From the NCBI GenBank assembly GCA_031414955.1, contig JANOQV010000039.1, positions 1 through 30,358 on the forward strand: a stretch of DNA of 30,358 bases. Direction: 5' to 3'. Shown piece by piece: positions 4,564 to 28,381 of the stretch (position 1 is its first letter; each line of letters begins with the position of its first letter). The stretch comes from Pedosphaera sp. Its GTDB lineage: Bacteria; Verrucomicrobiota; Verrucomicrobiia; Limisphaerales; SIBH01. The notes below the pieces were generated by a model, which searched no databases, was not told the origin of the DNA, and saw only the letters and a list, made by a program, of their open reading frames with translations. A program made the translations under genes and the position numbers.

Positions 4564-4577
4564 TCCAGATCCAACTT

Positions 4578-4755
4578 AGAGCCGGTCTGAAAAGTCACTG
4601 GTGCAGCGCAAGCGGCCCGCCCCGGAGTGCGCCCGTCCTCGGGCGCAGCAACGTGCAAACACCAGCGGGCATGGGTTTTTCCGACGCGCTCCAAGTCATC
4701 ACGTTGCGGCACCCGAGGCGGGCGCACTCCGCCTCCGAATTTTCAGACCGGCTCT
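4578..4755. mobile_element. 178-bp non-autonomous MITE-like element with an internal inverted REP-like pair
   Basis: Perfect 16-bp terminal inverted repeat agagccggtctgaaaa (4578-4593) / ttttcagaccggctct (4740-4755). An internal ~32-bp imperfect inverted repeat lies at 4624-4655 / 4700-4730. Confidence 0.75.
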
Positions 4756-5837
4756 CAGGCCCGCCAGGTCTGCTTCAGGAACTCCGCGCCTGGGGCGGCG
4801 AGTTCCTCGCGGGTCGGCTCCTGGGCCACGCCGGGCGCGCGGCGCGGGAGCAGGCGTTGATGGAGCGGGATGTGCGGGACGTTGCGCACGTCGAAGTTCA
4901 AAAAGGACAAGAGCAACTGCACGCCGACGAGCACCGGCAGCGCGGCGAGCATGACGGTGCCGGCCGTGACGGGAACACCCGATTCCATCGAACCCCACCA
5001 GCGCAGCCCGCCGAAAAGAAGACCGAAGAGAAGGGCGGCGAACCCGGCCAGCAGTTCCACGGAGGCCACGCTGAAGTTGCGCAAGTAGTGGTTGTAGGCC
5101 ACGCGCTTGACGGCGTTACGAAAGTGCAGCAGGAGAAACGGCGCGAGGACCCGGCCGACGCGAAGATGGCTGCGCTCGTCCGCATATCGGGCCGACATGG
5201 GCACGTCCTCCACGACCGCGCCAAGCGTGTTGAGCCGGAACAGCAGATCGGACTCGAAGAAGTAGCGCGGGTGCAGTTTGTGCAGCGGCAATTCGCGCAG
5301 CACGGCGGCGTGAATGGCGACGTAGCCGTTCGTCGGATCGAAGATGCCCCAGTAACCGGAGGAAAGTTTCGTGATGAACGAAAGGCCGGCGTTTCCCACG
5401 AGGCGTAACGCCGGCATGGAGTGGATGGACTCCAGATTGATGAAGCGGTTGCCTTTGCTGTAGTCGGCGCGGCCCGCGAGAATCGGCCCGATGATGCGCG
5501 GCAGGATGGCCGGGTCCATTTGTCCGTCGCCATCGAGCTTCACCACGATGTCGGCACCGTCGTTCAGCGCCTGGCGGAAGCCGGTGATGCAGGCCCCGCC
5601 CACGCCGCGATTGCCTTCATGGTGCAAGACGCGCACGCGGGCATCTTCGCAATGTTCAGCGATGAATTGTCCGCTGCCATCGGGACAGGCGTCGTCCACG
5701 CAGTAAATCTTTCCGACCTCCGGCCCGATGGCGTCCAGGACTTCGAGAATGTGGGAGATGACGCGGTAACAGGGAATGACCACGGCGAGGCGCGGCGTGG
5801 CGGCGGCGGCGGTTTCCACTGGGAGAGAGTTATTCAC
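4755..5837 (-). CDS. Glycosyltransferase family 2, DPM1/GtrB-like polyprenol-phosphate type with C-terminal TM helices
   Basis: VVIPCY, VDDACPDGS, NRGVGGA, KLDGDGQMDP, DPTNGY, and two hydrophobic helices near the C-terminus. Confidence 0.9.
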   Translation of the reverse strand: MNNSLPVETAAAATPRLAVVIPCYRVISHILEVLDAIGPEVGKIYCVDDACPDGSGQFIAEHCEDARVRVLHHEGNRGVGGACITGFRQALNDGADIVVKLDGDGQMDPAILPRIIGPILAGRADYSKGNRFINLESIHSMPALRLVGNAGLSFITKLSSGYWGIFDPTNGYVAIHAAVLRELPLHKLHPRYFFESDLLFRLNTLGAVVEDVPMSARYADERSHLRVGRVLAPFLLLHFRNAVKRVAYNHYLRNFSVASVELLAGFAALLFGLLFGGLRWWGSMESGVPVTAGTVMLAALPVLVGVQLLLSFLNFDVRNVPHIPLHQRLLPRRAPGVAQEPTREELAAPGAEFLKQTWRA

Positions 5838-10818: not shown

Positions 10819-13800
10819 ATGATCAAAGCCATGATTGCATTGAGCAAAAAGATTTTCGAGCGGGCTGGAATTCCCCTCACGCTCGCCCTGTGCGTCTTCC
10901 TCGGCCTGGCACTTGCCACGGCCTCGGCCGGCACCGTGTCCGTCAGTTCGAGCGCGCCGGCGGTGAACGGCCACGACATCGCCAACCTGACGACGCGCAA
11001 TGACAGCGACAAGTTTTGGGCCGAGAGCGGTACTGTGGCGGGCAGCGCGCACGGGCAGACCTTCCACACCGGCAGCGCGCCGACGTGGCTGCGCGCCGTC
11101 ACTTACCGGACGACGCCGGGCAACGAGGGCGACCCGACGAAGACTTACGTCGTTCGCCTCGGCAAAGTCACCGGCACGAGCTTCGCGCAGGTTCACACCG
11201 AGACGTTCACGCAAAGCATCCAGTGGGGGAGCGAGCAATACCTGACTTGGACGTTCACCGCGCCGGTGCTGCTCGACGGCGACACGACCTACGGCGTGGA
11301 CGTCGGCATGACCAGCAGCACCTCGACGTGGCAGACGGGCATTCCGTATCTCTCGGTCACGGCGGACAATTATCTCGGCGGACAGTTCTACACGTCGGGC
11401 GGGGCATCACCGGGCGTGGGCAACAACAGCCTGACCTTGAGCGCGACTTCGGACCGGCATTTCCATCTGAACATTGACGCGCCGACGGGCACGCCGCTCG
11501 CGTTCATCGCGGGCAATCCGCCGGACAACTCCACGAACGCGCTCGTGCGCGCGGAATTGATCGGCGCGTTCAATCAAACGCTCAGTCCGGGCGCGGGCCA
11601 CGTCATCATCCGCAACGTGACCGCCGGCACGGAAACCAATCTCGCCGTGGCGGACCCGCGCATCACGCTTTCGGCGAACCTGCTCAAGGTCGCCACGCCG
11701 GGCTTGATTGACTGGGGCCGGAGCTACGCCATTCGCATCGCGCCGGGCGCGGTGCTCGGCACGGGCGGGGTGGCCTTCGTCGGCATCACGAACAACACGA
11801 CGTGGAACTTCACCACTTCGATCGACGATCCGTTGCTCGCCGCCATCGCCGCGCTCAAGAGCCATCTCGTCGGCACCACGAACCTGACCACGAACCAGAT
11901 CGCCGCGCACAGCCGCACCATCGACAACGAGTCGCCGCGCTACGCCGCCAGCGCGACGAACATCGCCGCGCTGTTCAGCCTGATCTCGACCTACGACGCC
12001 GAGGTCGGCCCGCTCTGGATCGCCACGGGCGATCTGACGCGCGCGAACGAGGCGGACGACATGACGTGGACGATCTACCGTGCGATGCAGGCGATCCTGG
12101 ACAACATCTACAACGCGCCGACGCTCGCGCAGCACGAGGCGCTGTTGCGCGGATTCAAGTTCGGCAGCTCGGCGAATTTCCCCGGCAATTGCGCCACGCC
12201 GCCCACGAACCAGACCCGCACCGTGGCCATCAACGCGAGTTTCCCCGACAGCTTCGGCCGCAGCACGCAGGGCTGGACCGAGCCGGCGCGCAAGCCCACC
12301 GGCACGTATCTCGCGCCCGGCACCATCGCCACCGTCACGGTGCCGCCCGCGCTCGTGGGGCAGGGTTATCAGATTCGCGTGGGCGCGCATTCGTGGGACA
12401 TGTCGGGTCGGCCCTCGGTGCGGCGGCTCGACCGTTGCACGCTGCTTTACGACATCAATTCCACGAACACTAAGGTCGCCAGTCCGCTCGGCGGCGGCAT
12501 CTACATCGAGGTGCCCAAGGGCCGGAACGCGGGCGTGGTGAACGTGACAGTCACCGGCGCGGCGCGTTCGCCGTATTTCTCGGCGAAGAGTTTTCACCAG
12601 ACCACGCTGTCGGAATGGGTCAACACCGAGCGCACGCAGCCGGGGCCGTGGGCGGATTTTCAAACGGAGAAATACATGGTGCAGGTGCCGCGCAGTTGGA
12701 TTTACGCGCTGGCCGATCCGCTCACGGCGATGACGAACTGGGATGCCGCGATTGACGCCTGCAACGATCTGATGGGCTTCCCGCGCATCCGGGGCAAAGA
12801 ATCCATCTACGATCAAGTGGACGTGCTGCTGCGCGCCTCGGTCTATGCGCCGGGCTATCCGGCGGTCAACAGCAGCTACAATCCCGACACGACCTACAAC
12901 GGCAACTCGACGAGCTACCTCGTGCGCGGCCCGGCGAGCGCGCCGGACTACGAGTTCCACGAGCACGGCCACGGCTACTTCTTCCCGAAGTTCGCCGACG
13001 AGCAGGAGTCCACGGTGAACCTGCTGCACATCGCGGTGATGACGCAGAAGTTTGGCAAGACGTTTGACCAGGCGCTGCGTGAATCGAATGGCAACGGCTC
13101 GTTCTGCACGCTGCCGAACACGGCGGTGCTGTGGATGACGAGCTTCAACTTTTCGCCACGCGAGGTGCCGATGGCCGACTGGGAGAAGGCGTATCAGCCG
13201 CAGGGCCACGCCAAGTTTGCGGACATCGCGCGCCTCTACGGCTGGGGCGGGTTGAGCAACTTCTGGTACTACTACAACGCGAAGGACGATCTGGGGCAGA
13301 GCTATTCCACCAGCACGGACAGCATGATTCTTCAGCTCGCCCAGTCCGTGGGCCGCGACGTGCGGCCGATGCTGCACTTCTGGGGCATTCATCCGACCAG
13401 CCCGGCCACGTTGAGCAACTCCATCGCCGCCGCGCGCCTCAAGGCGCCGGTGGAATTCTACGACCGCATCGTCCAGTACCAGGGCCTCGTGCCTACGAAC
13501 AACGCCACCTACCGGAGCTGGTGCAGCAACTGGTATGGCACCGCGCCCACGATGGCGGGTTACGGCGTCGAGCGGGAGCACGCGCGGCAGTGGAGCACAA
13601 ACCTGCAAAACGGCACCGATACGCAGGTGCGTTTCCCGACGGAAATCTTTGACGAAGCCGCGTCCACGCAGGTCAAGGCGCGCACGCAGGAGATTCTCAA
13701 TCTCTATTACCCGAGCGGCCGGCCCACCGACTACGCCGCGTGGGATGCCGGATTCCCCGGCGTGAACCTGAGCGACCCCGACGCTGATTTCGACGGCGAC

Positions 13801-14109
13801 GGCGTGAGCAACGATCTGGAGCGCATCTGGGGACTCAACCCGACGAACGCCGCTTCCTCCAGTCCCTACACCGCCATCGCGTCGCTCAAGACGACCGGCC
13901 AGTTCACCTACACCCGGCGCACCACGACGCTCACCGGCCTGAGCTTCACCGTGTGGACCTCGACCAACCTCACCGCCTGGACGCGCGACACCGGCGCGAC
14001 GCAGACGATCACCTCGACCGTGAACAACGTGCAGACGGTTAGGGTGCAGTTGAGCGCCGCGCTGCTCGCCCAGCCAAAACTGTTCGTCCGCGTGCAGTCC
14101 GGGCCGTGA
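10819..14109 (+). CDS. Secreted multidomain M60-like (enhancin-type) zinc metallopeptidase
   Basis: Signal peptide, Ig-like segment (NPPDNSTN...FNQ...WNFTT), M60 N-domain (PTGTYLAPG, SPLGGGIYI), zinc motif HEHGH with a downstream ESTVN glutamate, and a DADFDGDGVSN acidic motif. Start is 10819 or 10831. Confidence 0.85.
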   Translation: MIKAMIALSKKIFERAGIPLTLALCVFLGLALATASAGTVSVSSSAPAVNGHDIANLTTRNDSDKFWAESGTVAGSAHGQTFHTGSAPTWLRAVTYRTTPGNEGDPTKTYVVRLGKVTGTSFAQVHTETFTQSIQWGSEQYLTWTFTAPVLLDGDTTYGVDVGMTSSTSTWQTGIPYLSVTADNYLGGQFYTSGGASPGVGNNSLTLSATSDRHFHLNIDAPTGTPLAFIAGNPPDNSTNALVRAELIGAFNQTLSPGAGHVIIRNVTAGTETNLAVADPRITLSANLLKVATPGLIDWGRSYAIRIAPGAVLGTGGVAFVGITNNTTWNFTTSIDDPLLAAIAALKSHLVGTTNLTTNQIAAHSRTIDNESPRYAASATNIAALFSLISTYDAEVGPLWIATGDLTRANEADDMTWTIYRAMQAILDNIYNAPTLAQHEALLRGFKFGSSANFPGNCATPPTNQTRTVAINASFPDSFGRSTQGWTEPARKPTGTYLAPGTIATVTVPPALVGQGYQIRVGAHSWDMSGRPSVRRLDRCTLLYDINSTNTKVASPLGGGIYIEVPKGRNAGVVNVTVTGAARSPYFSAKSFHQTTLSEWVNTERTQPGPWADFQTEKYMVQVPRSWIYALADPLTAMTNWDAAIDACNDLMGFPRIRGKESIYDQVDVLLRASVYAPGYPAVNSSYNPDTTYNGNSTSYLVRGPASAPDYEFHEHGHGYFFPKFADEQESTVNLLHIAVMTQKFGKTFDQALRESNGNGSFCTLPNTAVLWMTSFNFSPREVPMADWEKAYQPQGHAKFADIARLYGWGGLSNFWYYYNAKDDLGQSYSTSTDSMILQLAQSVGRDVRPMLHFWGIHPTSPATLSNSIAAARLKAPVEFYDRIVQYQGLVPTNNATYRSWCSNWYGTAPTMAGYGVEREHARQWSTNLQNGTDTQVRFPTEIFDEAASTQVKARTQEILNLYYPSGRPTDYAAWDAGFPGVNLSDPDADFDGDGVSNDLERIWGLNPTNAASSSPYTAIASLKTTGQFTYTRRTTTLTGLSFTVWTSTNLTAWTRDTGATQTITSTVNNVQTVRVQLSAALLAQPKLFVRVQSGP

Positions 14110-15619: not shown

Positions 15620-15913
15620 TGCCTCAACTCAGATCGTTGCCAGCAAACAAACCACCACGCCACCAGTCCCGCGCCTGCGGGACCAGCGGCAGCGAACTCG
15701 GCCCCGGCGCGACAAAGAAAATTCCGGGCGTTGGTTTTAAACGCTCCTGACCGCCGCTCATCAAGATGGGTGCCGCGGTGAAGGCGCAAATTGATGCCTT
15801 CTTTGGCCACTGTCCCTGACGCAATGCAAAACAGTGCGGAGAGAGCGGTGGAGCATTTTCCATCTTGCAAGATGGAGTTAAATCTACCCGCCGAAGATCC
15901 GGTGCGGGCAGCA

Positions 15914-16645
15914 CTACGGCACACGCAGAATTTCCGGGCGGAGGCGGCCGACGAATTGGCCCGGCAGGCGTGAATCAAGCGAGTCAGGCGCGGGTGATTC
16001 AGCGGACACATGGCCGTCGCAAAAGATCACGTTGGCTTTTCGCCCGTGCCGGAAGTGAGCGGTGGCTTCGGTGGTGTTTGTGCTGATGTAGTAAAATTCC
16101 TCGAGCATCGGGTTCGAGGGCGACGCGGGCGGTTGGAAGGTGTTCACCTGTGCGGCATCCGCGAAGAGCACCGTCTCGGAGGGATGCGTCACGCTGGAAA
16201 TGCGGATGGGAGGACGATTGAGCGGCACGGAGAGGTGCAGGTTGTAGCCGTAGCCGTAGGCAGCCCCGCGCACTTTGAGTTTGAATTGCGCCTGCGAGTA
16301 ATTCAGCGACGGGCAAATTTCCACGCCGCGTCCCTGAAGGTAAGGGTAGAGCGCGCCTTGGGTGGCGTCGAAGGCGCGTTCTCCCTCGGCACCGTTTTCC
16401 AGCCAGCCAAACCAATAGGTTTTTCCGCTGGCGTCGTAGCCGTTGAGCCAGCGGAAGCATTGGTCCTCATGGTCGTCCCAATACATCTGCGCGGCGAGAC
16501 CGAGTTGGCGAAGGTTGTTCGTGCATTGGGCACGCTGCGCGGCGGTCTTCGCACGACCGAGGGCGGGCAGGAGCAACGCCGCGAGCACGGAGAGGATGGC
16601 GATGACGACGAGCAGTTCGATCAAGGTGAAGGCCCGGCGTTTCAT
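15914..16645 (-). CDS. Prepilin-type N-terminal cleavage/methylation protein with H-X9-DG motif (PVC DUF1559-like group)
   Basis: [40 protein letters not shown], and [17 protein letters not shown] at 16645 overlaps the upstream stop (ATGA). Confidence 0.9.
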
Positions 16646-17004
16646 GCGTGGCTCGCGAGCGAAGGCTTGGGATAGGGGCAATGACGACAGTTGTTCTCGC
16701 AACAGTAGCCACGCCGCCGGTGATAGCTGGCGGTGAAGACCACCAGGCCGGCGTCGAAATAGAAATCGCCGGGAAGAATTCTCTGCGCGGCGGTGCTGTT
16801 CGCTTTGGCGCGGTGGAATCGCATCACGCAGTCGCGGCAGATGCAGGTTCTGTTTCGCAATTCCGTCGGCACTTGAACGAGCAACGCCTCCGGGATTTCC
16901 ACCCGGGCACACCAGCACGGGCCTTTGTAGGGGTCGGGCGTGCAGAGCTGGCAGTCGTTCGCTTGGCCGCAGAGCGGGCAGGAGATGGCTTCAGGCGGGT
17001 TCAT
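16642..17004 (-). CDS. Cysteine-rich CWC domain fused to a DUF5522-like domain
   Basis: [10 protein letters not shown]...PCWC...CICRDC followed by DFYF...[27 protein letters not shown] at 17004. Confidence 0.8.
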
Positions 17005-17989
17005 TTTGCCGATGGCGCAACTTCGGGTCGGTCGTGCCGGTCGCGGTGGAGCAATCGATTTGGACATACGCCTCCGCCGGGCCGCGCCACGCGAAGAGTT
17101 CGGGATGCAGCAAGTGCGCGAGGAGTGCCGTGCCGTCCACGACGCGTGGGCCGGGGCGATTGAAGTAGCCGCCGTCCACGGCGAAGACTTGGTTCTGCTG
17201 CACGGCGGGAAGTTCCGTCCAACCCGGTTGGTTCATGAGCCAGCCCGCTTGAGCTTGGGCCTCACGGGTCGCAAATCCGCAGGGCATGAGGATGAGAATC
17301 TCCGGTTCCGCCTCGCGCACCGACTCCCAACTCACGCGCACGGAGTCGGCCCACTTGCGGCCGAGCCGGTCCGTGCCGCCAGCGATCTCGACCATCTCCG
17401 GCACCCAATGTCCGGCGCAGAAAAGCGGGTCCATCCATTCGGCGCAGAACACTCGCGGACGGCGTGTTGTTTGCGCCACTCGCTCCGCAACATTTCGCAG
17501 CCGGTCTTGCCCGGCGGCGATGAGGCATTCGGCTTCGGTCGCGCGCCCGGTCGCCCGGCCGAGTGCGCGGAGGTCGCCCTCGATCTCCGCGATGGAGTGC
17601 GGCGACATCCAAAGCACTTGCGGCTGGTGCGGCAGGGCTTTCAGAGCACGGCTGACTTCGTTGCCCGCCGGGGCGCAGACCTGACAGAGATCCTGGGTGA
17701 GAATATGAGTGGGCGCGAGTTCGCGCAGGAGTTGTTCATCCACATGGTAGAGGCTTTCGCCGCGTCTCAGCGATTCGCTCACGGCGCGGTCAATCTCGCT
17801 GAGGCTGAGGTCGCTCACGGGAATGTTGCCGTGAACGACGAGCGGCTTGCCGCGAATTTCCGGCGGGAAATCGCAGCAGTGCGTGAGGCCCAGCAATTGA
17901 TCTCCGAGGCCCAGCGCGCAGGCCATCTCCGTCGCCGAAGGCAATAGAGAGACGAGGCGCAATTCGCCAGTCGCGGGAGTGGAACTCAT
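16991..17989 (-). CDS. BtuF-like cobalamin/iron-chelate binding protein, no signal peptide
   Basis: RLVSLLPSATE, THCCDFP, TQDLCQVC, GHWVPEMVEIAGG and FNRPGPRVVDG. Start ATG at 17989; the longer track ORF overlaps the upstream gene. Confidence 0.85.
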   Translation of the reverse strand: MSSTPATGELRLVSLLPSATEMACALGLGDQLLGLTHCCDFPPEIRGKPLVVHGNIPVSDLSLSEIDRAVSESLRRGESLYHVDEQLLRELAPTHILTQDLCQVCAPAGNEVSRALKALPHQPQVLWMSPHSIAEIEGDLRALGRATGRATEAECLIAAGQDRLRNVAERVAQTTRRPRVFCAEWMDPLFCAGHWVPEMVEIAGGTDRLGRKWADSVRVSWESVREAEPEILILMPCGFATREAQAQAGWLMNQPGWTELPAVQQNQVFAVDGGYFNRPGPRVVDGTALLAHLLHPELFAWRGPAEAYVQIDCSTATGTTDPKLRHRQNEPA

Positions 17990-17994
17990 GGCGT

Positions 17995-18528
17995 TCAGGC
18001 GGTGACGGGAACAAGGCGCGGCTCGCGCAACGACATGAACCGGCGTTGGGCCAGCGCCAGCCCGCCGAACAACCCGCTGGCGTAGAACAGGTCGCCGAGC
18101 AGGCCGTTGCGAAAGTAGGGCAGGCCGGCGACATAACATTCCAGCAGGCCGGCGGCATTCATGGGGTAGGTATCGAGGCAGGCCCACACGCTGAAGTTCG
18201 TCACGAGAAAGAACACGACGGAGCTGATCAGCGACGCGAGCGCAACGCGGCCCGCGCCGGGCCGGCGACGCAGCCAGAAGCCGAGGCACACGGTCAGCGC
18301 GAAGCAGCCATAGACAAACGGCATGAGCCGGTGGAGTCCGAGCACGAGGTCACCAAGGAACAGCGCCGCCAACGGCAGCACGAAGGCCGCGCGTTTACTG
18401 GCGAACTGCGCCCCGCCAAACAGGGCCATCGCGCCGATGGGGGTGAAGTTCCACGGATGGGGCAGCAGCCGCGCGACAGCGGCGGCGAGAATCATTCCGA
18501 CAAGGACGAGGTAACGCTGTTTGTTCAT
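17995..18528 (-). CDS. DUF6580-like small membrane protein, putative corrinoid transporter
   Basis: 177 aa with ~5-6 TM segments, RLLPHPWNFTPIGAMALFGGA, FFLVTNF.VW and CYVAGLPYFRN. ATG at 18528 overlaps the upstream TGA. Confidence 0.8.
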   Translation of the reverse strand: MNKQRYLVLVGMILAAAVARLLPHPWNFTPIGAMALFGGAQFASKRAAFVLPLAALFLGDLVLGLHRLMPFVYGCFALTVCLGFWLRRRPGAGRVALASLISSVVFFLVTNFSVWACLDTYPMNAAGLLECYVAGLPYFRNGLLGDLFYASGLFGGLALAQRRFMSLREPRLVPVTA

Positions 18529-19247
18529 GGTGTTTTCTTTCGTTGTGGTCTGGTCAGTTTTGGTTTTCCGCCGCCGCTGGTTGTGGGCAGCAAATCTGCG
18601 AAATGAAAGGGGCCGCGTGACACGATCTCGCCCACGCAGCAGGCCACGGGCTGCCGAAAAATCGGCCCGGCGTGGACGAAGGTGTGGAACTCGCCGTTCT
18701 CGCCGCACGGGTCAACGTGCGCGGGCAGGCTGGCCAGCAGGCCCTCGTCGTAGGTGCGACCGGCGAACGAGGCGGCGAGCTTCCGCCCATGCACGCACAC
18801 GAGCGTGGCGCGGAAACCGGCGCGGATGAATTCGCGGGCCAGTTGGGTCGTGTCGAGTCCCCACAAGGGGTAGAGCGCGGTCATGCCGACCTCGGCGAGC
18901 ATCCGGTCGCGATAGGCGCGGATGTCCGCAAGGAACAAATCGCCGAAGGCCACTTTGGTGATGCCCGCCGCCTTGAATTCGAGGCAGGCCGCGCGCATGA
19001 GCCGTTCGTAATCTTCGTTGGCGCACTGCTGCGGGATGAACACTTTCCGACAGGGAATCCCGAGCGCCTCGGCCTGACGGTTCAGCAACGAACAGCGCAC
19101 GCCGTGCATGCTCACGCGGCGAAATCCCTCGGTGCAAGTGGTCAGCAGCGCCGTCACCTCGTGCCGGCCCTCGGCGAGAATTTTACGGAGCGTCAGCGAC
19201 GAGTCCTTGCCGCCGCTCCACCCCAGAACGATGCGTTCGCGGGCCAT
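18525..19247 (-). CDS. PP-loop ATP pyrophosphatase, Dph6/MJ0570 (diphthine-ammonia ligase-like) family
   Basis: WSGGKDS, RVSMHGVR, FGDLFL.DIR.YR and DPCGENGEFHTFV. Confidence 0.9.
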   Translation of the reverse strand: MARERIVLGWSGGKDSSLTLRKILAEGRHEVTALLTTCTEGFRRVSMHGVRCSLLNRQAEALGIPCRKVFIPQQCANEDYERLMRAACLEFKAAGITKVAFGDLFLADIRAYRDRMLAEVGMTALYPLWGLDTTQLAREFIRAGFRATLVCVHGRKLAASFAGRTYDEGLLASLPAHVDPCGENGEFHTFVHAGPIFRQPVACCVGEIVSRGPFHFADLLPTTSGGGKPKLTRPQRKKTP

Positions 19248-19248
19248 G

Positions 19249-20310
19249 TCAGTCGGCGCGTGAAGCGTTGATGCGGTAGAAGCGCGCGTTGAAAGCGGCA
19301 GCGTTGGTGTCTTGCAACACTACCTGGCCGCCCGTGCCCGCGCGCGTGCTACTGGCTTCACTCCATGAGTGAAAATTTGTCGTGGCTTGCAGGACGTAGT
19401 TCCAATTCGTGCGGCTGAGGAATGTCTGCTGCCAGTGATCGCCCACTGCGGCGAATTGCTCGTGCTGGATGGGCGGCGGCGGGAAGGTGACGGTGAGGTT
19501 GTCAATCACGCCGTGCGCCAGGATGGAACCGGCATACGGACCCGGTGCCAGGCCGAGGTCGCTGTAGCTGCTGATGGCGAAGGTATCCACCTTGAACTGA
19601 GTGAACGGCCTGCCGAAGCCGGAGCTGTTCGTCGCGAGGCGCGCGGAAGTCACCGGGCCGACGAGCACGCCGTTGGTCTTGATGGAAGTCAGGACCGTTT
19701 GATTACTCGACGTGTAGGCCAGGACAATGCGCATCGTGACCCCCGTGGGCAGGTCAAACAGGCTGAAGTCGCCGCTGCCGTTGTAGTTCATTCCGGAGTT
19801 GGTGGAATAAACGGCGGGCCAGACGGTCGGGCCGAAACCGGTATCCGGGAAGAAATTGAACTCGACCAGGTTCGGCGAGTTCCGGCCCGTGCCGCGATTG
19901 AATGTGGTTGATTGGGCGTCGTCGCGATTTTGGAAACCGAAGGCCAGTTGCATCGGGCCGGGCTTGCCCGGATTGATTCCGCCAACGATGTCGTGGAGCC
20001 GAAGGTCCAGCTCGGCGCGGAAGTCGTCGTTCCGGGCCATGATCGTGCCCAGCGGCAAATGCAGATAGCTGTTGCTGCGCGAGGAATCCCAGGTGACTTC
20101 GAGATTCTGATTCGTGGAGTTCCAGCGTAACAAGCCCGCGTCGCCGAAGAGCTTCCAACCTTGAGCCAGCGGGTGGCTGGAAAAATTTTGAGTGACCGTC
20201 AGCACGCCGGACCCACTGTCCCCGACGGGGTCAGCGAATTGAGCGAGCGACAGATTGGGAACGAGGATTACGCTGGCCAGAGCCAGCGCCGGCAAACAAT
20301 TTTTCCGCAT
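19249..20310 (-). CDS. Secreted beta-rich hypothetical protein, first gene after the cobalamin riboswitch
   Basis: Signal peptide (LALASVILVPNLSLA-Q), a Ser/Thr/Asn/Gly-rich body, a PPPP linker, and C-terminal YVLQATTNF.SW...DTNA...RFYR. Confidence 0.8.
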   Translation of the reverse strand: MRKNCLPALALASVILVPNLSLAQFADPVGDSGSGVLTVTQNFSSHPLAQGWKLFGDAGLLRWNSTNQNLEVTWDSSRSNSYLHLPLGTIMARNDDFRAELDLRLHDIVGGINPGKPGPMQLAFGFQNRDDAQSTTFNRGTGRNSPNLVEFNFFPDTGFGPTVWPAVYSTNSGMNYNGSGDFSLFDLPTGVTMRIVLAYTSSNQTVLTSIKTNGVLVGPVTSARLATNSSGFGRPFTQFKVDTFAISSYSDLGLAPGPYAGSILAHGVIDNLTVTFPPPPIQHEQFAAVGDHWQQTFLSRTNWNYVLQATTNFHSWSEASSTRAGTGGQVVLQDTNAAAFNARFYRINASRAD

Positions 20311-20387
20311 GGTCTAATGGTCTTTCATCATGTCCTGCCGCAGAACGGCGGGACGGGTTGGCGATTGAGAGACCAGGACGGAATCTG

Positions 20388-20432
20388 AAAACGAAAAAGC
20401 CTTCAGACCCCGACAAACGGAGAATGAAGGCT
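20388..20432 (-). terminator. Intrinsic terminator candidate in the riboswitch leader
   Basis: On the minus strand, agccttca...tgaaggct forms a stem followed by ttttcgtttt, between the aptamer and the ATG at 20310. Confidence 0.65.
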
Positions 20433-20534
20433 AGAAATTCAACGAACCCCGCGAAGACAGTTCGCGGGCTGGCCTCATCCTTCTCTTTGACGGAGAAGTT
20501 GGCTCCGCAAAAGCGGAGCCATGACGAGCGCAAT

Positions 20535-20700
20535 CAAACCGGTATCCTGACTTTGGGCTTCGAACCTCGCTCCCTCCTTCCCAGCGTGTGGCTGGTGGCC
20601 TTGGGAGTTTGTAACCCGTTACAGTGGCGCAACCGTCCCCGATTCTCACGGGGTTCCCTGACATTTGATGGCTAAACTAACAGCGGCCGATGGCCGCGTG
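20535..20700 (-). ncRNA. Cobalamin riboswitch
   Basis: The minus strand reads AGGGAA-ccccGTGAGAATcgggg-ACGGTtgc-GCCACTGTAA...GCCAC...GGGAAGG...AAGTCAGGATACC (B12 box). It lies upstream of a BtuF-like gene. The 5' boundary is approximate. Confidence 0.92.
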
Positions 20701-20772
20701 TTTCAAAGAACTGCCGCTGTGTAGAACCGCGCGGCTCACATAGCAAGTGAGAAGTCCCGGACAGCGATGTCC

Positions 20773-20892
20773 CTTGATGAAGAAGGCAACATCCGGTGCC
20801 TGGTCGAAAAGTTTCTCCAGCAACGAAACGTCCACCGGGGCCGGGGCTTTTGGTTCCGACGCAATGGGGCGCTTCGTTGTGCGTGTTTTCAC
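20773..20892 (-). pseudogene. 5' remnant of a PAS-domain (probably PAS-AraC) transcriptional regulator
   Basis: GTG at 20892 gives VKTRTTKRP...LLEKLFDQAPDVAFFIK, the start of a PAS fold. Similarity stops abruptly after FFIK. Confidence 0.6.
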
Positions 20893-20949
20893 TTCGGAGC
20901 GGGATTTTAATCCAAGACGGCGGAGGAGACGACACGCTAGATTCAACGG

Positions 20950-21204
20950 ATGAAAACCACCCGTCGGCCCGTGGCCACAAAGCGGTTGTCCGCCTCGGCC
21001 CGGTGCTTCGCGCGTTCCATCATCTTCAGCCTGGGCCTCGTCCTCGCGGCCCAGCTTCACGCCAAACCGCTCAAGGTCTTCATCCTCGCCGGACTGTCGA
21101 ACATGCAGGGGCATGCCAAGGTCAGCACCTTCGAGCATATCGGCATGGACCCGTCGACGAAGCCGATGCTGGCGGAAATGCTGGGCGCGGATGGGAAGCC
21201 GTGA
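20950..21204 (+). pseudogene. Truncated paralogue of the SASA-family acetylesterase
   Basis: Signal peptide followed by KPLKVFILAGLSNMQGHAK..., stopping after 84 aa. 21061-21201 matches 22874-23014 at 129/141 nt (hand count). Confidence 0.85.
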
Positions 21205-22771: not shown

Positions 22772-24016
22772 ATGAAATACAAATCCATGAACACTCTCCA
22801 CTCAGCCCGACAATTTCTGCTGCTCACCACCACCCTTTTCTCCACGCTGATTTCCTTGAATGCGGCGGTGCCAGCCAAGCCGCTCAAGGTCTTCATCCTC
22901 GCCGGGCAGTCGAACATGCAGGGACACGCCAAGGTCAGCACGTTCGAGCACATCGGCATGGACCCGGCGACGAAGCCGATGCTCATGGAAATGCTCGGCG
23001 CGGATGGGAAGCCGAAGGTCTGCGAGCAGGTGTGGATTTCGTCCATCGGCTGCGGGAAAGACGAGACGACGGAACAGACGGGGAAGCTGACGGCGGGCTT
23101 CGGTGCCTCGACCGAAAAGATCGGCCCGGAGTTTACCTTCGGCATCTACATGGAGAAGTCCACGGACGCGCCAATCCTGATCATCAAGACTTCCTGGGGC
23201 GGGAAGAGTCTGAACACGGATTTCCGCTCTCCGAGCGCGGGGCCGTATGTGTTCAACGAAACGCAGCTCGCGGCATTTCAGAAACAAAACAAGGACGTGG
23301 CGGCGATGAAAGCGGAGAAAGCGAAGGCGACCGGCGTTTATTACCGCCGAATGATTGAGCATGTGAAATTGGTGCTCGCCGACCTCAAGCGCGTGGTGCC
23401 GGATTACGACGCGGCGCAGGGCTACGAGTTGGCGGGCTTCGCGTGGTTCCAAGGCTGGAACGACCTCGTGGACGGCAGCACTTACCCGACGCGCGACAAG
23501 CCCGGCGGCTACGAAGCCTACAGCATGGCGCTGGCGCATTTCATCCGCGATGTGCGGCGCGACCTCGGCGTGCCGAAGCTGCCGTTCGTCATCGGCGTGC
23601 TCGGCGTGGGCGGGCCGGTGGCGGACTACGGCCCCGACGAGCAGCGCTACAAGGCGACGCACCAAAACTTCCGCGACGCGATGGCGGCCCCGGCGCAGTT
23701 GCCGGAGTTCAAAGGCAACGTCGCGACGGTGCTGGCGGAGAAGTATTGGGACCGCGAGCTGAAGGCGGCTCGGGCGAAGGAAGGCGAAATCAAACAGCGC
23801 GCGAAGAAGCTCGCGACCGAAGGCAAACTGAAACCCGCCGAGGAAAAGGCGGCGCTGGAGAAACTGCGCGCGGAAGGGCTGACGGAGCGCGAGCGGCAGG
23901 TGCTGGAGAAAGGCATCTCCAACCTCGAGTTTCACTATCTCGGCTCGGCGAAAATCCTCGGCGGCGTCGGCAAGGGGCTGGCCGAAGCGATGGCGGAACT
24001 CAAAAAGACAAAGTGA
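22772..24016 (+). CDS. Sialate O-acetylesterase (SASA, SGNH-like) family carbohydrate esterase, secreted
   Basis: Signal peptide, FILAGQSNMQG, IGPEFTFG, IIKTSWGGKSL, WFQGWND and a C-terminal EFHY. Start is 22772 or 22787. Confidence 0.88.
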   Translation: MKYKSMNTLHSARQFLLLTTTLFSTLISLNAAVPAKPLKVFILAGQSNMQGHAKVSTFEHIGMDPATKPMLMEMLGADGKPKVCEQVWISSIGCGKDETTEQTGKLTAGFGASTEKIGPEFTFGIYMEKSTDAPILIIKTSWGGKSLNTDFRSPSAGPYVFNETQLAAFQKQNKDVAAMKAEKAKATGVYYRRMIEHVKLVLADLKRVVPDYDAAQGYELAGFAWFQGWNDLVDGSTYPTRDKPGGYEAYSMALAHFIRDVRRDLGVPKLPFVIGVLGVGGPVADYGPDEQRYKATHQNFRDAMAAPAQLPEFKGNVATVLAEKYWDRELKAARAKEGEIKQRAKKLATEGKLKPAEEKAALEKLRAEGLTERERQVLEKGISNLEFHYLGSAKILGGVGKGLAEAMAELKKTK

Positions 24017-24157: not shown

Positions 24158-24171
24158 TCCCAATCCCACTA

Positions 24172-26571
24172 ATGAAAACCACACTCCTTTCCCTCGCGCT
24201 CGTCGCCTTCTTCGCAGCGCCGTTTCCGGCTTTGGCCGCTGCCAAGGGCCAGCCGATGACGATTCCTGATTTCACCCAAGGCGACACCATCCCCGCAGGA
24301 GCGAAGCACGACTGGAACCTCGGTGCCATCGGCGCGCGCGGCTGGATGTTTTGCGACAAGATGGTGACGAGCGATGCGCGGCAGGTCGCCATCACCCAAG
24401 TGGAAAAGGGTTCGCCCGCTGATGGCCTCCTCGGGGTCGGTGACGTGATCCTCGGCGCGGGCGGCAAGCCGTTTTCCCATGACCCGCGCACGGAGTTGGG
24501 CCAGGCGCTCACTGCTGCCGAAGCGGACGCGGGCGGCGGAAAGTTGGCGCTCACACGTTGGCGCGCGGGCAAGGCGGAGGAGGTCGTCGTCAAACTCCCA
24601 GTGCTCGGCAGCTACAGCGTCACTGCGCCTTTTGAATGCCCGAAGTCGAAGCGCATTCTGGAGCAAGGGTGCAAGTTGCTCGCCGCCCAAATCGCGGAAC
24701 CGGCTTACGCCAAAAAACAAAACCCCATCACTCGCTCGCTCAACGCCCTCGCCCTGCTGGCCAGCGGCGACCCCGCCTATCTCCCGCTGGTGAAGAAGGA
24801 AGCCCAATGGGCGGCGGACTTCTCCGCAGCGAGTTTTCAGACCTGGTATTACGGCTACGTGATGATGCTGCTTTCCGAGTATGTCATCGCGACGGGCGAT
24901 GCGAGCGTCATGCCCGGCTTGCAGCGGCTCGCGCTGGCCTCCGCTCACGGCCAGAGCGCCGTCGGCTCGTGGGGACACCGTTTCGCGATACCTGACGGAC
25001 GACTCAGTGGCTACGGCATGATGAACTCCCCCGGCGTGCCGCTCACGACCGCGCTGGTGCTGGCCCGCACCGCCGGCGTGAAGGACGCGGCGGTGGACCG
25101 CGCCATCGAGCGCAGCGCCCGCCTGCTGCGCTTCTACATTGGAAAAGGAGCGATCCCGTATGGCGACCACGCCCCGTGGACGGAGACGCATGAAGACAAT
25201 GGCAAGTGCGGCATGACCGCCGTCCTGTTCAACCTGCTCGGTGAAAAGAATGGCGCGGAATTTTTCTCGCGCATGAGCGTCGCCTCCCACGGCCCGGAGC
25301 GCGACACCGGGCATACCGGGAATTTTTTCAACATGCTCTGGGCCATGCCGGGCATCGCGCAGTCCGGCCCCGAGGCCACAGGCGCGTGGATGCAGGAATT
25401 TGGCGGCTGGTACTTCGACCTCGCGCGCCGTTGGGACGGCAGCTTCCTCCACCAAGGCCCGCCGGAAGCGCGCGAAGACAGCTACGCCGGCTGGGACTGC
25501 ACCGGTGCCTACCTGCTCGCCTACGCCATGCCGCTGAAGAAAATTCACCTCACCGGCAAACGCCCCAGCGGCATCCCGCAACTCGACGCCACCGCCACGC
25601 AATCGCTCATCAACGATGGACGAGGCTGGAACAACAAAGACCGCAAGAGCGCCTACGATGCGCTGGGGGAGGAAGAGTTGCTCGCCCGCCTCGGCAGTTG
25701 GTCGCCCACCGTGCGTGAGCGGGCCGCGATGGCCCTCGCCCGTCGCAAAAGCGCGCCCATTCCAGTGCTGCTCAAAATGCTGGATTCGCCCCGCCTCGAA
25801 GACCGCTACGGAGCCTGCCAAGCGCTCGGCTCGCTCAAAGGTGCCGCCGCCGCCGTGCCCGCGCTGCGAAATACATTCCGCCACGAAGACCTCTGGTTGC
25901 GCGTCCAGGCCGCGGAGGCGCTTGCCGCCATCGGCACGCCCGCGATGGTCGCCGTGCCGGAATTGCTGGAGCGCCTCGCCCGCGAACCCTCCGCGCAAGA
26001 CCCGCGTGGGATGGAACAGCGATTCCTTTGCTCCGCGCTCTTCGGCACGCTGCTCAAAAAATCGCTCGACGGCGTGGACCGCGACCTCCTCCGCAAAGCC
26101 GTCGCCGCCGGCCTTCGCAACCAGGACGGCCGCGCGCGCGGCGAGGTCGGCGGCATTTACCAGCGGCTCAGCTACGACGAACTCAAACCCCTCCTGCCCG
26201 CCATCCTCGAAGCCATCGTCACGCCCGCCCCGAGCGGGGAAATGTTTGCCGACGGCATCCGCGTGGAGGGATTGCGGCTTCTCGCCAAACATCGGATCGA
26301 GGAAGGCATCAGCGCGTGTGTGAAATACACCCGCGAGCAGAATCCGTGGGACAGCCAGAAGCGGACACCGGAGTTGATGAAAATCCTGCTCACCTACGGC
26401 GCTCACGCGAAGCCGGTCATTCCCGAGCTGACAAAACTCGCCGACTACTTTGCAAAGGACGAAAAGGACTTCCCAAAAAGCTTGATGCTCGTGAAGGCCA
26501 AGAGCGTCCGCGACACCATCGCCGCCATCGAGGCCTCGACGGAAACGCCGGAACTCGTGCGTCTCAAGTAG
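24172..26571 (+). CDS. Secreted protein with PDZ-like, DUF6288-like helical and HEAT-repeat regions
   Basis: ATG at 24172 with a signal peptide; WNLGAIGARGW...VEKGSPADG.L.VGDVILG (PDZ-like); GAIPYGDHAPW, HTGNFFN.LW and WYFDLARRWDGSF; HEAT-like VRERAAMAL and LRVQAAEALAAIG. Confidence 0.75.
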   Translation: MKTTLLSLALVAFFAAPFPALAAAKGQPMTIPDFTQGDTIPAGAKHDWNLGAIGARGWMFCDKMVTSDARQVAITQVEKGSPADGLLGVGDVILGAGGKPFSHDPRTELGQALTAAEADAGGGKLALTRWRAGKAEEVVVKLPVLGSYSVTAPFECPKSKRILEQGCKLLAAQIAEPAYAKKQNPITRSLNALALLASGDPAYLPLVKKEAQWAADFSAASFQTWYYGYVMMLLSEYVIATGDASVMPGLQRLALASAHGQSAVGSWGHRFAIPDGRLSGYGMMNSPGVPLTTALVLARTAGVKDAAVDRAIERSARLLRFYIGKGAIPYGDHAPWTETHEDNGKCGMTAVLFNLLGEKNGAEFFSRMSVASHGPERDTGHTGNFFNMLWAMPGIAQSGPEATGAWMQEFGGWYFDLARRWDGSFLHQGPPEAREDSYAGWDCTGAYLLAYAMPLKKIHLTGKRPSGIPQLDATATQSLINDGRGWNNKDRKSAYDALGEEELLARLGSWSPTVRERAAMALARRKSAPIPVLLKMLDSPRLEDRYGACQALGSLKGAAAAVPALRNTFRHEDLWLRVQAAEALAAIGTPAMVAVPELLERLAREPSAQDPRGMEQRFLCSALFGTLLKKSLDGVDRDLLRKAVAAGLRNQDGRARGEVGGIYQRLSYDELKPLLPAILEAIVTPAPSGEMFADGIRVEGLRLLAKHRIEEGISACVKYTREQNPWDSQKRTPELMKILLTYGAHAKPVIPELTKLADYFAKDEKDFPKSLMLVKAKSVRDTIAAIEASTETPELVRLK

Positions 26572-26718
26572 TGGCAAAAATATGGGTGGCCAATGTCGTC
26601 CCTGCTCTCGCGTTCCGCACGACCCGCCGGACGGAATTCCCGCCTTTGCAGCCGCCTTCCCCACCGCCATTCTCGCTCCCATGCTGACGCACTAAACCAA
26701 CGCGGGCATCGCCAAGGC

Positions 26719-28122
26719 ATGAAAGAAAATCAGCAACTCGAATGGAAAGAAACCTGGCGAGATGAGTTCCTGCGCTGGGTCTGCGGCTTCGCGAATGCGG
26801 AGGGTGGCATCCTTCACATCGGGCGCAATGACAAGGGCGTGGTCGTCGGCTTGCCGGATGCCGCGAAACTGCTGGAGGACATTCCGAACAAAGTCCGCGA
26901 TGTCCTCGGCATCCTCGTCGCGGTCAATGCCCATGCAGAGAACGGCCTGCCCTGGCTGGAGATTGTCGTGGATGCTTATCCCAATCCCATTAGCTACCGG
27001 GGCCATTACTTCCAGCGCTGTGGCAGCACCTTGCAGGAGATGAAAGGAGCCGCGCTGGACCGTTTCCTCCTCCGCAGGCAGGGCCGCACCTGGGATGGCG
27101 TGCCCATGCCCGGTGTCAAAGTTACGCACCTCTCCACTGCCGCCATCCGCCAGTTTCGGGATCTCGCCCGCCACAGCGGTCGCCTTGATCCGGCCGACCT
27201 CCGCTCGTCCAAAGCCGTTCTGATTGAAAAACTCCAGCTCACCGAGGGCACCTATCTCAAGCGCGCCGCCGTGCTGCTCTTCCATGAAGACCCCGAGAAA
27301 TTCGTTACCGGCGCCTTTGTCAAAGTCGGCTTCTTTCGTTCCGAATCCGATCTCGCCTACCACGACATGATCCAAGGCGACCTCTTTACCCAGGTCGCCA
27401 AGACCATCGACCTCATCCGCACCAAATACCTCAAAGCCGCCATCACCTATCAGGGCATCCAGCGCATCGAGCGCTACCCCGTGCCCGATGCCGCCTTGCG
27501 CGAAGCCATCCTCAATGCCCTTGTCCATCGCGACTACGCCGTCGGTGCCCCTGTGCAGATTCGCGTCCATGAAGACCGCCTGAAAATCTGGAACCCCGCC
27601 GTGCTCCCGGACGGCTGGACGGTGAAAAATTTCCTCCGCGAGCACGCCTCCACCCCCTTCAATCCCGCCATCGCCAACGTCTTCTTCCGCTCTGGAGAGA
27701 TCGAAACCTGGGGCCGTGGCATTCAGCGCATCTTCGCCGCCTGCAAGGACGCGGGCACGCCCCGGCCCGCCCTCACGTTTGACGGCACCGGCCTCGCCCT
27801 CGAGTTCCGCTACACGCCGGATTACCTCAAGGCGGTGAAAGCCCCCGACCCAGTCAGAGGTGAAGTCACCCCGGAAGTCACCCCGGAAGTCACCCCGGAA
27901 GTCGAGCGACTGCTCTCCGCCTTCACCGGCGAACACTCTCGCCGCGAGCTTCAAGAAAAACTGGGCCTGCAGGACGACGATCACATGCGCATCGCCTACA
28001 TCATGGCGGCGCTGGCCGCCGGCCTCATCGAGCGCACCCTCCCCGGCAAACCCAACAGCCGCCTCCAAAAATACCGCCTCACGGCCCAAGGCCGCGCCTG
28101 GCTCGCCCGGCACCCGCATTAA
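26719..28122 (+). CDS. AlbA_2 (Schlafen-like) + HATPase_c_4 + C-terminal wHTH protein
   Basis: ENQQLEWKE, CGFANAEGG.LHIG.ND.G.VVG, ALREAILNALVHRDY, NPAIANVF, IETWGRGI and KPNSRLQKYRLT. ATG at 26719. Confidence 0.88.
   Translation: MKENQQLEWKETWRDEFLRWVCGFANAEGGILHIGRNDKGVVVGLPDAAKLLEDIPNKVRDVLGILVAVNAHAENGLPWLEIVVDAYPNPISYRGHYFQRCGSTLQEMKGAALDRFLLRRQGRTWDGVPMPGVKVTHLSTAAIRQFRDLARHSGRLDPADLRSSKAVLIEKLQLTEGTYLKRAAVLLFHEDPEKFVTGAFVKVGFFRSESDLAYHDMIQGDLFTQVAKTIDLIRTKYLKAAITYQGIQRIERYPVPDAALREAILNALVHRDYAVGAPVQIRVHEDRLKIWNPAVLPDGWTVKNFLREHASTPFNPAIANVFFRSGEIETWGRGIQRIFAACKDAGTPRPALTFDGTGLALEFRYTPDYLKAVKAPDPVRGEVTPEVTPEVTPEVERLLSAFTGEHSRRELQEKLGLQDDDHMRIAYIMAALAAGLIERTLPGKPNSRLQKYRLTAQGRAWLARHPH
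27862..27903 (+). repeat. In-frame 12-bp tandem repeat (gaagtcaccccg x3.5), encoding EVTP
   Basis: Three perfect units at 27862, 27874 and 27886, plus gaagtc. Confidence 0.95.
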
Positions 28123-28153
28123 CTTCATGCACGAACATTCCGACAACGCCACC

Positions 28154-28243
28154 ATCCGCCGCGCCCTCCCCGGCCAGATCTTCTCCCGCACGCAGATTCC
28201 CCTCTGCCTCTGGTTCCTCGCGAAAAACAAAAACGCCGACGCG
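28154..28243 (+). pseudogene. hsdM: Remnant of a type I restriction-modification methyltransferase (HsdM)
   Basis: IRRALPGQIFSRTQIPLCLWFLAKNKNADA resembles the conserved HsdM segment LPGQLF..TQIP.CLWFL. Confidence 0.7.
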
Positions 28244-28381
28244 GAAGCGGCTGGAGCGGGCGGGGAAGAAGGCGTGAAGTCGCACTTTGAACGCAGGCTC
28301 GAACTGTTGAATCTCTCCCAACGCAAACTATGAAACGCACAGCAAAGAAAAAAATCCGCGAAACATTGAAGCCGCAACGCC

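Follow-up and report, generated by a model that had tools for sequence, protein, structure and literature searches.

Large solutes such as vitamin B12 (cobalamin) are thought to cross the outer membrane via TonB-dependent receptors. BtuM reportedly is a solitary S-component B12 transporter, and ECF-CbrT is likewise said to transport B12. For DNA uptake by type IV pili, retraction through a secretin is the model. In Bacteroides, B12 is bound at the cell surface by the lipoprotein BtuH2 (pdb entry 7biz; PMC8941943), and the C-terminal 250 residues of BtuG1 (8blw; PMC10404256) are a BtuH domain, as stated in the accessible parts of both papers. Pili genes in the mucin utilization loci (MUL) of Akkermansia muciniphila are needed for mucin import, according to the available portion of PMC12418764. 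The locus described here is an operon of six genes (g1–g6) that follows a cobalamin riboswitch of Pedosphaera sp. and ends with a prepilin gene. It lies on a contig of 30,358 nucleotides (nt), which as a whole is called the window. The pilin module of this operon probably, though far from certainly, stands in for the TonB-dependent receptor BtuB in cobalamin-repressed corrinoid uptake. The module would both bind and transport B12.

In this report genomes, loci and contigs are designated by G, L and C numbers, respectively, and sequencing runs as X1 and X2. The source genome is G000 (6.55 Mb, 313 contigs, 95.9% complete, 5.8% contamination) and the window is its whole contig C39. The riboswitch scores 61.7 bits with the full model RF00174 (gathering threshold 31.5, E 3.5e-13) and is the sole Rfam match within the window. 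Its leader folds better than shuffled sequences (z −5.0; 0 of 200 shuffles equally good). An extended hairpin with a U-rich tail accounts for −21.5 kcal/mol over a folded stretch of 65 nt, and its 5' arm can pair with a complementary upstream strand. This strand is predicted to function as the antiterminator of an expression platform between aptamer and g1, and the leader of the genome's second riboswitch is arranged in a similar way. A simple terminator scan with a loop limit of 3–8 nt did not list the hairpin, and a scan for sigma-70 promoters found none. Leader and 5' end of g1 are 89% identical to another genome, G070, across 20223–20712. Judged from its sequence, the riboswitch should bind its ligand and repress the operon in a B12-dependent manner.

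The six genes downstream of the riboswitch are all on the minus strand, with gaps of +1, −4, +5, −14 and −4 nt. A preliminary description of the locus had named a clear riboswitch and a leader terminator, and the Rfam search and the folding agree with both. It had also reported six tightly coupled genes, which holds for the gaps of +1, −4, +5 and −4 nt; the remaining overlap of 14 nt is not of the ATGA type. Its family calls are borne out by Pfam and NCBIfam searches (Diphthami_syn_2 for g2, DUF6580 for g3, Peripla_BP_2 for g4, Cys_rich_CWC and DUF5522 for g5, N_methyl for g6, no match for g1). Likewise, the window is free of TonB receptors, ABC permeases and ABC ATPases, as had been stated: none of the 6 TonB-barrel matches, 2 FecCD matches and 58 ABC-ATPase alignments of the source genome is located on this contig.

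The distribution of pilins and TonB receptors was compared in 101 genomes, at least 90% complete, which were drawn evenly from the order and chosen independently of the window locus (G000 included). Cobalamin riboswitches are present in 94 of them (107 in total). The pilin (type 1) occurs in 63 genomes, and 52 of its 65 copies are located 1.1–4.5 kb downstream of a riboswitch in the same orientation. For the other 54 riboswitches, the downstream DNA was examined, G000's own excepted. Twenty-one of these, in 20 genomes, precede a TonB receptor; four of six such receptors tested score best on the B12-receptor model, all under its cut-off. Eleven stand before genes for class I ribonucleotide reductase, in some cases together with metE (L099–L104, L106, L107, L114, L121 and L131), which behind a cobalamin riboswitch is the usual B12-independent backup. 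Another twelve precede a second module. It combines a PEP-CTERM-type domain with a divergent BtuH-like domain and with a second pilin subfamily, which occurs in the 12 genomes concerned and in none of the others sampled. The PEP-CTERM-type domain at the N-terminus of this module has a conserved Trp/Gly pattern and stands before the BtuH-like domain or is fused to it. An alignment of 11 rows gave no Pfam domain and no PDB match at E 5. Most of the remaining riboswitches stand before BtuH-like or lectin genes, the pilin being located elsewhere or on a different contig.

Accordingly, the 101 genomes fall into four states with zero overlap: type-1 pilin (63), type-2 pilin (12), riboswitch-linked TonB receptor (20) and none of these (6). 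If type-1 pilin and TonB receptor were distributed independently, 12.5 overlaps would be expected. The Fisher test gives 5e-11 by genome and 1e-6 by family, values that overstate the effect because related genomes are not independent. Families with TonB genomes number 13 of 67, and in genus g13 the two states are each represented by one genome (G024 and G086). This mutual exclusion suggests that the pilin module replaces BtuB. A TonB profile was built from 19 riboswitch-linked receptors; these score 666–868 bits by construction, since the profile was made from them, and the next protein outside the set scores 275 bits. No TonB receptor matches this profile at E 1e-40 in 37 of the 75 pilin genomes, including G000. 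Outside the order, distant pilin orthologs were found in 11 of 150 genomes of the phylum, and seven of them follow a cobalamin riboswitch and one secreted gene.

The source genome itself needs B12, as judged from its genes. Genes were identified for MetH, a B12 radical-SAM enzyme, a PduO-type adenosyltransferase, a class II ribonucleotide reductase and a MerR regulator that binds B12; a short methionine synthase domain that is independent of B12 is encoded as well. No btuB, btuC, cobS, cbiB (PF03186), cobU or nrdB was found in this genome at 95.9% completeness. The best match to the B12-receptor model TIGR01779 has 64.8 bits and covers the plug only, and neither of the two riboswitches precedes a TonB-dependent receptor. 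Both FecCD matches are ABC-3 zinc-type permeases beside ZnuA. The permease of L112, a riboswitch-linked btuBCD locus, had no match in G000 when used as a query.

The best 80 of 89 loci around g6 orthologs define what is conserved. A riboswitch is present upstream in 60 loci, the g1/lectin family in 64 and a 254-residue BtuH-like family in 46, compared to 14 loci with a CWC gene, 8 with a BtuF-like, 6 with a DUF6580 and 5 with a Dph6-like gene. The core thus consists of the riboswitch, one or two secreted genes (BtuH-fold domain, lectin fold) and the prepilin, and the four middle genes are accessory. Riboswitch, lectin and pilin occur without a BtuH-like gene in 18 of the 60 riboswitch loci. 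Twenty loci have no riboswitch; 14 of these are cut by contig ends and six are true orphans, in which no riboswitch was found. In four loci (L045, L047, L089 and L096), orphan pilin orthologs were seen by eye upstream of a small heat-shock-like gene and a response regulator on the opposite strand.

The prepilin motif of g6 is recognized by PF07963 (32.7 bits) and TIGR02532 (30.7 bits), and the model shows a helix at residues 8–58. The residue before Phe6 is Ala rather than Gly in the window copy. PF07596 (DUF1559) is over its cut-off, at positions 3–32 of 268 only. The H-X9-DG motif (TIGR04294) scores 15.4 bits, below the cut-off of 19, with H200 and D210 invariant. Among 69 orthologs, 29 columns are invariant, mostly in the head. 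In fold comparisons with the g6 model (predicted local distance difference test, pLDDT, 94.6), the top 17 rows are type IV pilins, the best being PilA4 with a weak match (Z 5.4, r.m.s. deviation 3.1, 121 aligned). Judged from the model, the head consists of a pilin core into which large insertions have been placed. For assembly, the source genome offers PilM genes, a type II secretion system-type ATPase, three strong secretin matches and a weak one.

The secreted partner of the pilin has two parts in the closest relatives of the operon. Their first gene encodes a 565-residue BtuH-like/lectin fusion (L019–L023), and the L020 fusion was modelled (pLDDT 93.7). Residues 222–469 match legume lectins at Z 15.6–15.7 (best L-lectin match: r.m.s. 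deviation 3.2, 197 aligned), and E 4e-9 was obtained for a lectin-fold match. This L020 homolog is 73% identical to g1. Sequence identity to lectins is only 10–16%, and the fold is also found in lyases and hydrolases. On the evidence of the L020 model, g1 has a legume-lectin (ConA-like β-sandwich) fold. The C-terminal domain of g1 is common to about 50 proteins of the source genome (52 matches, 49 of them terminal). As a marker of pilin partners it was rejected: a gene with this domain was seen within 1.5 kb of just one of the 31 prepilin-like frames, so there is no general link to pilins.

Residues 1–222 of the L020 model resemble the BtuH parts of 8blw_B (residues 395–660; Z 14.2, r.m.s. deviation 3.2, 153 aligned) and 7biz_B (residues 320–593; Z 13.6, r.m.s. 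deviation 3.4, 152 aligned). Among the 50 fold matches listed, these are the only two confined to that domain. In line with this, a profile of the 254-residue family (41 rows) matches 8blw_B (E 4.5e-5) and 7biz_A (E 0.048) in the PDB. Fold model and profile thus identify a BtuH fold for the L020 fusion and for the family, whose profile includes a copy on another contig of the source genome, C132. The BtuH2 contact residues Asn399 and Phe401 align to the motif GNAGF with an offset of one residue (27 of the 41 rows have the Asn, all 41 the Phe). The alignment covers part of the nucleotide-loop contacts of BtuH2, whose contacts to the ring are Tyr510, Trp511, His476 and Trp577. The 47 reading frames of the family include 24 with a PEP-CTERM-like motif and 16 with more than 500 residues, fused to a lectin domain or further. 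At L091 (8282–10753) a single open frame of 824 residues spans the BtuH-like, lectin and pilin parts, either a natural read-through or an assembly error.

DUF4465/BtuJ is a different described family with a member in Verrucomicrobiota, according to the available part of 10.1101/2025.08.21.671476. The C132 protein was considered as a candidate for it and set aside as a less probable one, as it has no Pfam match at E 1, no NCBIfam match and no single-sequence PDB match. DUF4465 was not among the 50 fold matches listed for the BtuH-like/lectin model, which does not exclude it; for the C132 protein, profile and fold point to BtuH.

In the window, g1 retains the first 29 residues and the lectin part of the fusion and lacks 212 codons compared to L019, L020 and G070. 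At the junction, 33 nt in the window correspond to 669 nt in G070. By this comparison g1 derives from the 565-residue fusion through an in-frame loss. An assembly error is unlikely, as the junction is spanned, free of mismatches, in contigs from two runs of one study (X1 and X2), which possibly represent the source sample. The window operon thus lacks the likely capture domain, which is present in the other copy of the module in this genome.

This other copy is split. The C132 riboswitch precedes a 254-residue secreted protein, which is BtuH-like and has no PEP-CTERM tail (as in L042 and L048), and then a g1 paralog with 43% identity, after which the contig ends in a repeat. Contig C173 begins in a copy of that repeat, the one that matches best (90.5% over 74 nt), and continues with a pilin paralog of 58–60% identity. 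The two contigs are probably joined, which fits the gene order in members of the genus. In a pilin tree of 49 rows, 16 from the G-numbered genomes and 33 from among the 80 named loci, the pilin of C173 falls within the genus clade (100/96), and the window pilin groups with G070, a genome of another family, and three named loci (100/100). The window is 79% identical to G070 over 15907–20190. In G002, which belongs to the same genus, a Sel1/C39 gene ends at the position corresponding to 15615 and is followed after ~85 nt by sequence matching 21064 onward. This operon-free site was seen in one of four genus loci; the other three did not reach or match. A run X1 contig, possibly from another organism, has a similar joint (15622–21037). 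Contamination was rejected as the origin of the copy, as the window contig ranks 50 of 111 in tetranucleotide distance, carries a genome-wide repeat and has flanks that match genus members at 71–86%. Because of the position in the pilin tree, the identity to G070, the adjacent flanks in G002 and the ordinary character of the contig, the window operon is most likely a horizontally gained second copy. Compared to the native copy, which keeps the BtuH-like domain, it mainly adds the four accessory genes. Gene remnants are seen on the 5' flank (20764–21201), including 141 nt that share 91% identity with the beginning of a SASA-family gene at 22874–23014 and a further fragment similar to contig C156.

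Given the native copy, the window operon might be a redundant, decaying duplicate, with uptake performed by the C132/C173 module. The loss of the BtuH-like domain, the empty site in G002, the gene remnants on the 5' flank and the separate grouping of the two pilins (100/100 with another family, 100/96 with the genus) fit this explanation. However, none of the six reading frames is interrupted, the deletion preserves both the frame and the signal peptide, the riboswitch is intact, and an operon of riboswitch, lectin and pilin without a BtuH-like gene is the natural arrangement noted above for 18 of 60 loci. Decay is therefore regarded as improbable, and it would concern this copy, not the system.

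For the system, the following sequence of events is proposed. At low B12 the operon would be transcribed. The BtuH-like domain, anchored by PEP-CTERM or fused to the lectin, would capture corrinoid at the surface. Prepilin peptidase would mature the pilin, which could then assemble at a secretin machine of the cell into a short pilus or pseudopilus, and its conserved head might take the corrinoid across the outer membrane. Transfer across the inner membrane could be carried out by DUF6580. In the cytoplasm, the signal-less BtuF-fold protein would hold the corrinoid, and the DUF71-B12 ATPase might modify or repair it. The most far-reaching version states that most Limisphaerales/Pedosphaerales import B12 without TonB, that a dedicated DUF1559/H-X9-DG pilin binds corrinoid received from the surface BtuH-like protein, that a pilus or pseudopilus then draws the corrinoid through a secretin, and that two pilin subfamilies serve this purpose. 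This version is tentative and is considered slightly more doubtful than credible.

Several observations weigh against replacement of BtuB by the pilin module, in addition to the overstated Fisher values and the profile scores that are high by construction. The source genome is 95.9% complete in 313 contigs, which limits the gene absences, and it has six TonB-barrel matches. In 38 of the 75 pilin genomes there are other TonB receptors (up to 275 bits) that could import B12 without a riboswitch. The pilin is found without riboswitch, lectin or BtuH-like gene in 6 of 66 loci with enough upstream DNA, and 4 of the 11 distant orthologs also have no riboswitch. The operon has no pore gene, and its g1 has no capture domain. 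The pilin fold match is weak (see above), and Foldseek with the g6 model gave no match at E 0.001. The proposed carrier DUF6580 is weakly linked to known transporters, with weak matches to the ECF riboflavin S-component family PF07155 for 8 among 55 homologs (best E 2e-4), and PDB sequences gave no related match and one unrelated row at E 0.35.

In the main alternative, the pilin forms no filament; held in the inner membrane by its N-terminal helix, it would be the periplasmic receptor for B12 and thus do the work of BtuF, and B12 would pass the outer membrane through an unlinked porin or TonB receptor. This alternative is unlikely. In its favour, the operon has no assembly genes, 31 prepilin-like frames of the source genome share 3–4 secretins, and a periplasmic binder is otherwise missing, given that the BtuF-fold protein is cytoplasmic; many pilin genomes do hold other TonB receptors. 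Yet the exclusion of BtuB by the pilin would be left unexplained: neither pilin occurs in any of the 20 riboswitch-TonB genomes. Among the riboswitch-TonB loci, only L112 shows a signal-bearing BtuF and a permease.

Among the accessory gene products, the g2 protein matches PF01902 and is far under the Dph6 equivalog cut-off (81.7 compared to 197.3). Side-chain amidation is Dph6-like chemistry. As cbiB, cobU and cobS were not found, rebuilding of the lower loop would not be possible in the source genome, and g2 may instead modify or repair corrinoid by amidation. A bacterial DUF71 group was predicted for B12 salvage in 2012, perhaps replacing CbiZ, in the accessible part of PMC3541065. The g3 protein has four hydrophobic segments above the threshold used and is a candidate for a solitary inner-membrane corrinoid carrier. 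DUF6580 is present in 96 of the 101 order genomes, nearly always unlinked and single, and g3 represents a second subtype seen in three genomes. The family is missing in G036 (the sole genome with riboswitch-linked btuBCD), in three genomes without a riboswitch and in G051. The native DUF6580 gene of the source genome (C217:25623–26138) is unlinked to a riboswitch and lies beside a pseudouridine synthase gene and lpxI.

The g4 protein matches the vitamin B12-binding protein 5ysc with E 1.8e-14. It has no hydrophobic N-terminus, and its full-length homologs likewise start at the first strand without a signal peptide, unlike the signal-bearing btuF product of L112. Without a signal peptide g4 is not a periplasmic carrier and is probably a cytoplasmic corrinoid-binding protein. 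CWC genes of the g5 type are also found in 6 of 12 second-type pilin loci and in 1 of 21 TonB loci. Behind the riboswitch-TonB receptors (21 loci), Dph6-like genes occur five times, BtuF-like genes twice and a CWC gene once. These three families look like in-cell steps that serve either outer route. At L170 (G017:C18:22000–31000), where no riboswitch was found, a BtuH-like/lectin fusion, two Dph6-like genes, DUF6580 and a signal-less BtuF stand without a pilin beside a relaxase-like frame. Judged by this locus, the accessory cassette may move on its own.

The preliminary description had gone further and taken the six genes as a single, complete route from surface capture through envelope transit and import to cytoplasmic remodelling, built mostly from uncharacterised families. 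All or most of the six genes do co-occur in L019–L023 and G070, and each accessory family has a link to B12. But Dph6-like, DUF6580, BtuF-like and CWC genes belong to just 5, 6, 8 and 14 of the 80 loci, and the same accessory genes stand behind btuB-type receptors. In addition, g4 has no signal peptide, the BtuH-like domain is deleted from the secreted protein of the window, and full remodelling is unsupported, since cobS, cbiB and cobU, which would act downstream on the lower ligand, were not found in G000. A complete six-gene pathway is therefore quite unlikely. The expected conservation of gene order near cobalamin riboswitches of Verrucomicrobiota applies to the riboswitch, secreted gene and pilin and does not extend to the middle genes. 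For the Dph6-like family a B12 salvage link had been published in 2012 (PMC3541065, accessible part). The central proposal, a B12-regulated, non-canonical acquisition locus with a pilin, agrees with the conserved core behind riboswitches, with the lack of any co-occurring riboswitch-linked TonB receptor in 101 genomes and with the genome search, which found no btuB or btuC ortholog in G000.

A role in contact or storage, with lectin and pilin attaching the cell to B12 producers or matrix and the BtuH-like domain as a surface reserve, is very unlikely. In its favour, no other gene accompanies the pilin as constantly as the lectin-fold gene does (64 of 80 loci; Z 15.7), the window copy keeps lectin and pilin and has lost the BtuH-like domain, and BtuJ1 is described as a surface reservoir in the accessible part of its description. 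Against it, adhesion would not make BtuB dispensable, TonB exclusion is complete in the sample, and the pilin is constant while its partner varies (BtuH-like, lectin or other PEP-CTERM domains).

Table 1. Positions of the operon, its regulatory elements and the related modules. Coordinates refer to the window unless a contig is named.
Feature	Location	Strand	Basis
Cobalamin riboswitch aptamer (RF00174)	20520..20683	-	Covariance-model score above gathering threshold
Candidate antiterminator strand of expression platform	20471..20490	-	Pairs with 5' arm of terminator hairpin, −12.6 kcal/mol
Candidate intrinsic terminator: internal-loop hairpin followed by a U-rich tail	20387..20432	-	Folding
g1, secreted 353-residue protein	19249..20310	-	Signal peptide, legume-lectin (ConA-like) fold and C-terminal domain
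Junction of in-frame deletion removing BtuH-like domain	20190..20223	-	G070 has 669 nt where the window has 33
g2, Dph6-like PP-loop ATPase, DUF71-B12 subgroup (accessory)	18525..19247	-	PF01902, 110 bits
g3, DUF6580 membrane protein (accessory second copy)	17995..18528	-	PF20221, 200 bits
g4, BtuF-fold protein without signal peptide (accessory)	16991..17989	-	Best PDB match 5ysc
g5, Cys-rich CWC and DUF5522 protein (accessory)	16642..17004	-	PF14375 and PF17653 over cut-off
g6, prepilin, DUF1559/H-X9-DG type (core gene)	15914..16645	-	N_methyl motif
Approximate extent of inserted stretch carrying the operon	15620..21060		G002 empty site, X1 joint
Native module copy, split by repeat at contig ends	G000:C132:54563-56948 and C173:57484-58339 (L003, L004)		
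Second pilin module loci	L108-L111, L113, L118, L129, L137-L139, L143, L152		

Elsewhere in the window, a secreted M60-like metallopeptidase is encoded at 10819–14109, and by eye its last residues resemble the shared C-terminal domain of g1. Three long reading frames (837, 563 and more than 659 residues) with no Pfam match at E 1e-4 occupy 24169–30358; the first has genus homologs at 71–86% DNA identity. Copies of intergenic repeats that are present on many contigs of the source genome lie at 4575–4760 and 15683–15786, and a separate palindromic repeat is found at many contig ends.

A literature search, which covered few subscription papers and no supplements, gave no description of a riboswitch-controlled pilin system for B12. 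The locus appears to be of a known kind, riboswitch-controlled B12 scavenging, with an outer-membrane step of an undescribed kind. The order is widespread in sediment, soil and water, and three quarters of its sampled genomes have a pilin module behind a B12 riboswitch, none of them with a riboswitch-linked receptor. One member of an expanded and functionally obscure pilin family is thereby tied to a small, defined ligand that offers simple read-outs, namely growth that depends on B12 and the colour of the ligand, and the role of such pilins becomes directly testable. DUF6580, signal-less BtuF, DUF71-B12 and CWC/DUF5522 proteins are sorted as in-cell steps that would serve either outer-membrane route. 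If the version with pilus and secretin is true, the dozens of paralogous pilins per genome would be substrate-specific receptors of a general pilus-based import that replaces TonB-dependent receptors.

Compared to BtuB and BtuCDF, the locus has the same regulation and a BtuF-fold protein, and 20 genomes of the order do have a riboswitch-TonB receptor. In contrast, the window locus has no receptor, permease or ATPase, and its BtuF-fold protein is not exported. DUF6580 resembles BtuM and ECF-CbrT as a small polytopic membrane protein in a B12 locus, with homologs that weakly match an ECF S-component family. It differs in having no sequence match to any solved structure, the comparison being by sequence alone. 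With the DUF71-B12 subgroup, g2 shares its standing as a bacterial PF01902 protein beside B12 uptake genes, as predicted in the accessible part of PMC3541065, where the CbiZ substitute is tied to cbiB; cbiB, cobS and cobU were not found in G000.

The mucin utilization loci of Akkermansia and type IV pilus DNA uptake are comparable in that pilin-type genes bring in a large solute, and Akkermansia also belongs to Verrucomicrobiota (PMC12418764, available portion). There the substrate is mucin or DNA, no riboswitch is involved as far as the available portion of the paper goes, and the comparison of the pilins extends to their role and the N-terminal helix. The Btu loci of Bacteroides thetaiotaomicron differ from the pilin locus in possessing BtuB, BtuG and BtuCD, whereas the pilin is the constant gene here. 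BtuH of B. thetaiotaomicron is a lipoprotein with PKD domains, and the corresponding domain of the pilin module has a PEP-CTERM end or a lectin fusion and is deleted in the window copy. Nevertheless, these loci (BtuH2, 7biz, PMC8941943; BtuG1, 8blw, PMC10404256; accessible parts) and the pilin module have in common a riboswitch followed by a surface BtuH-fold domain, and part of the nucleotide-loop contact motif is kept in the domain of the pilin module.

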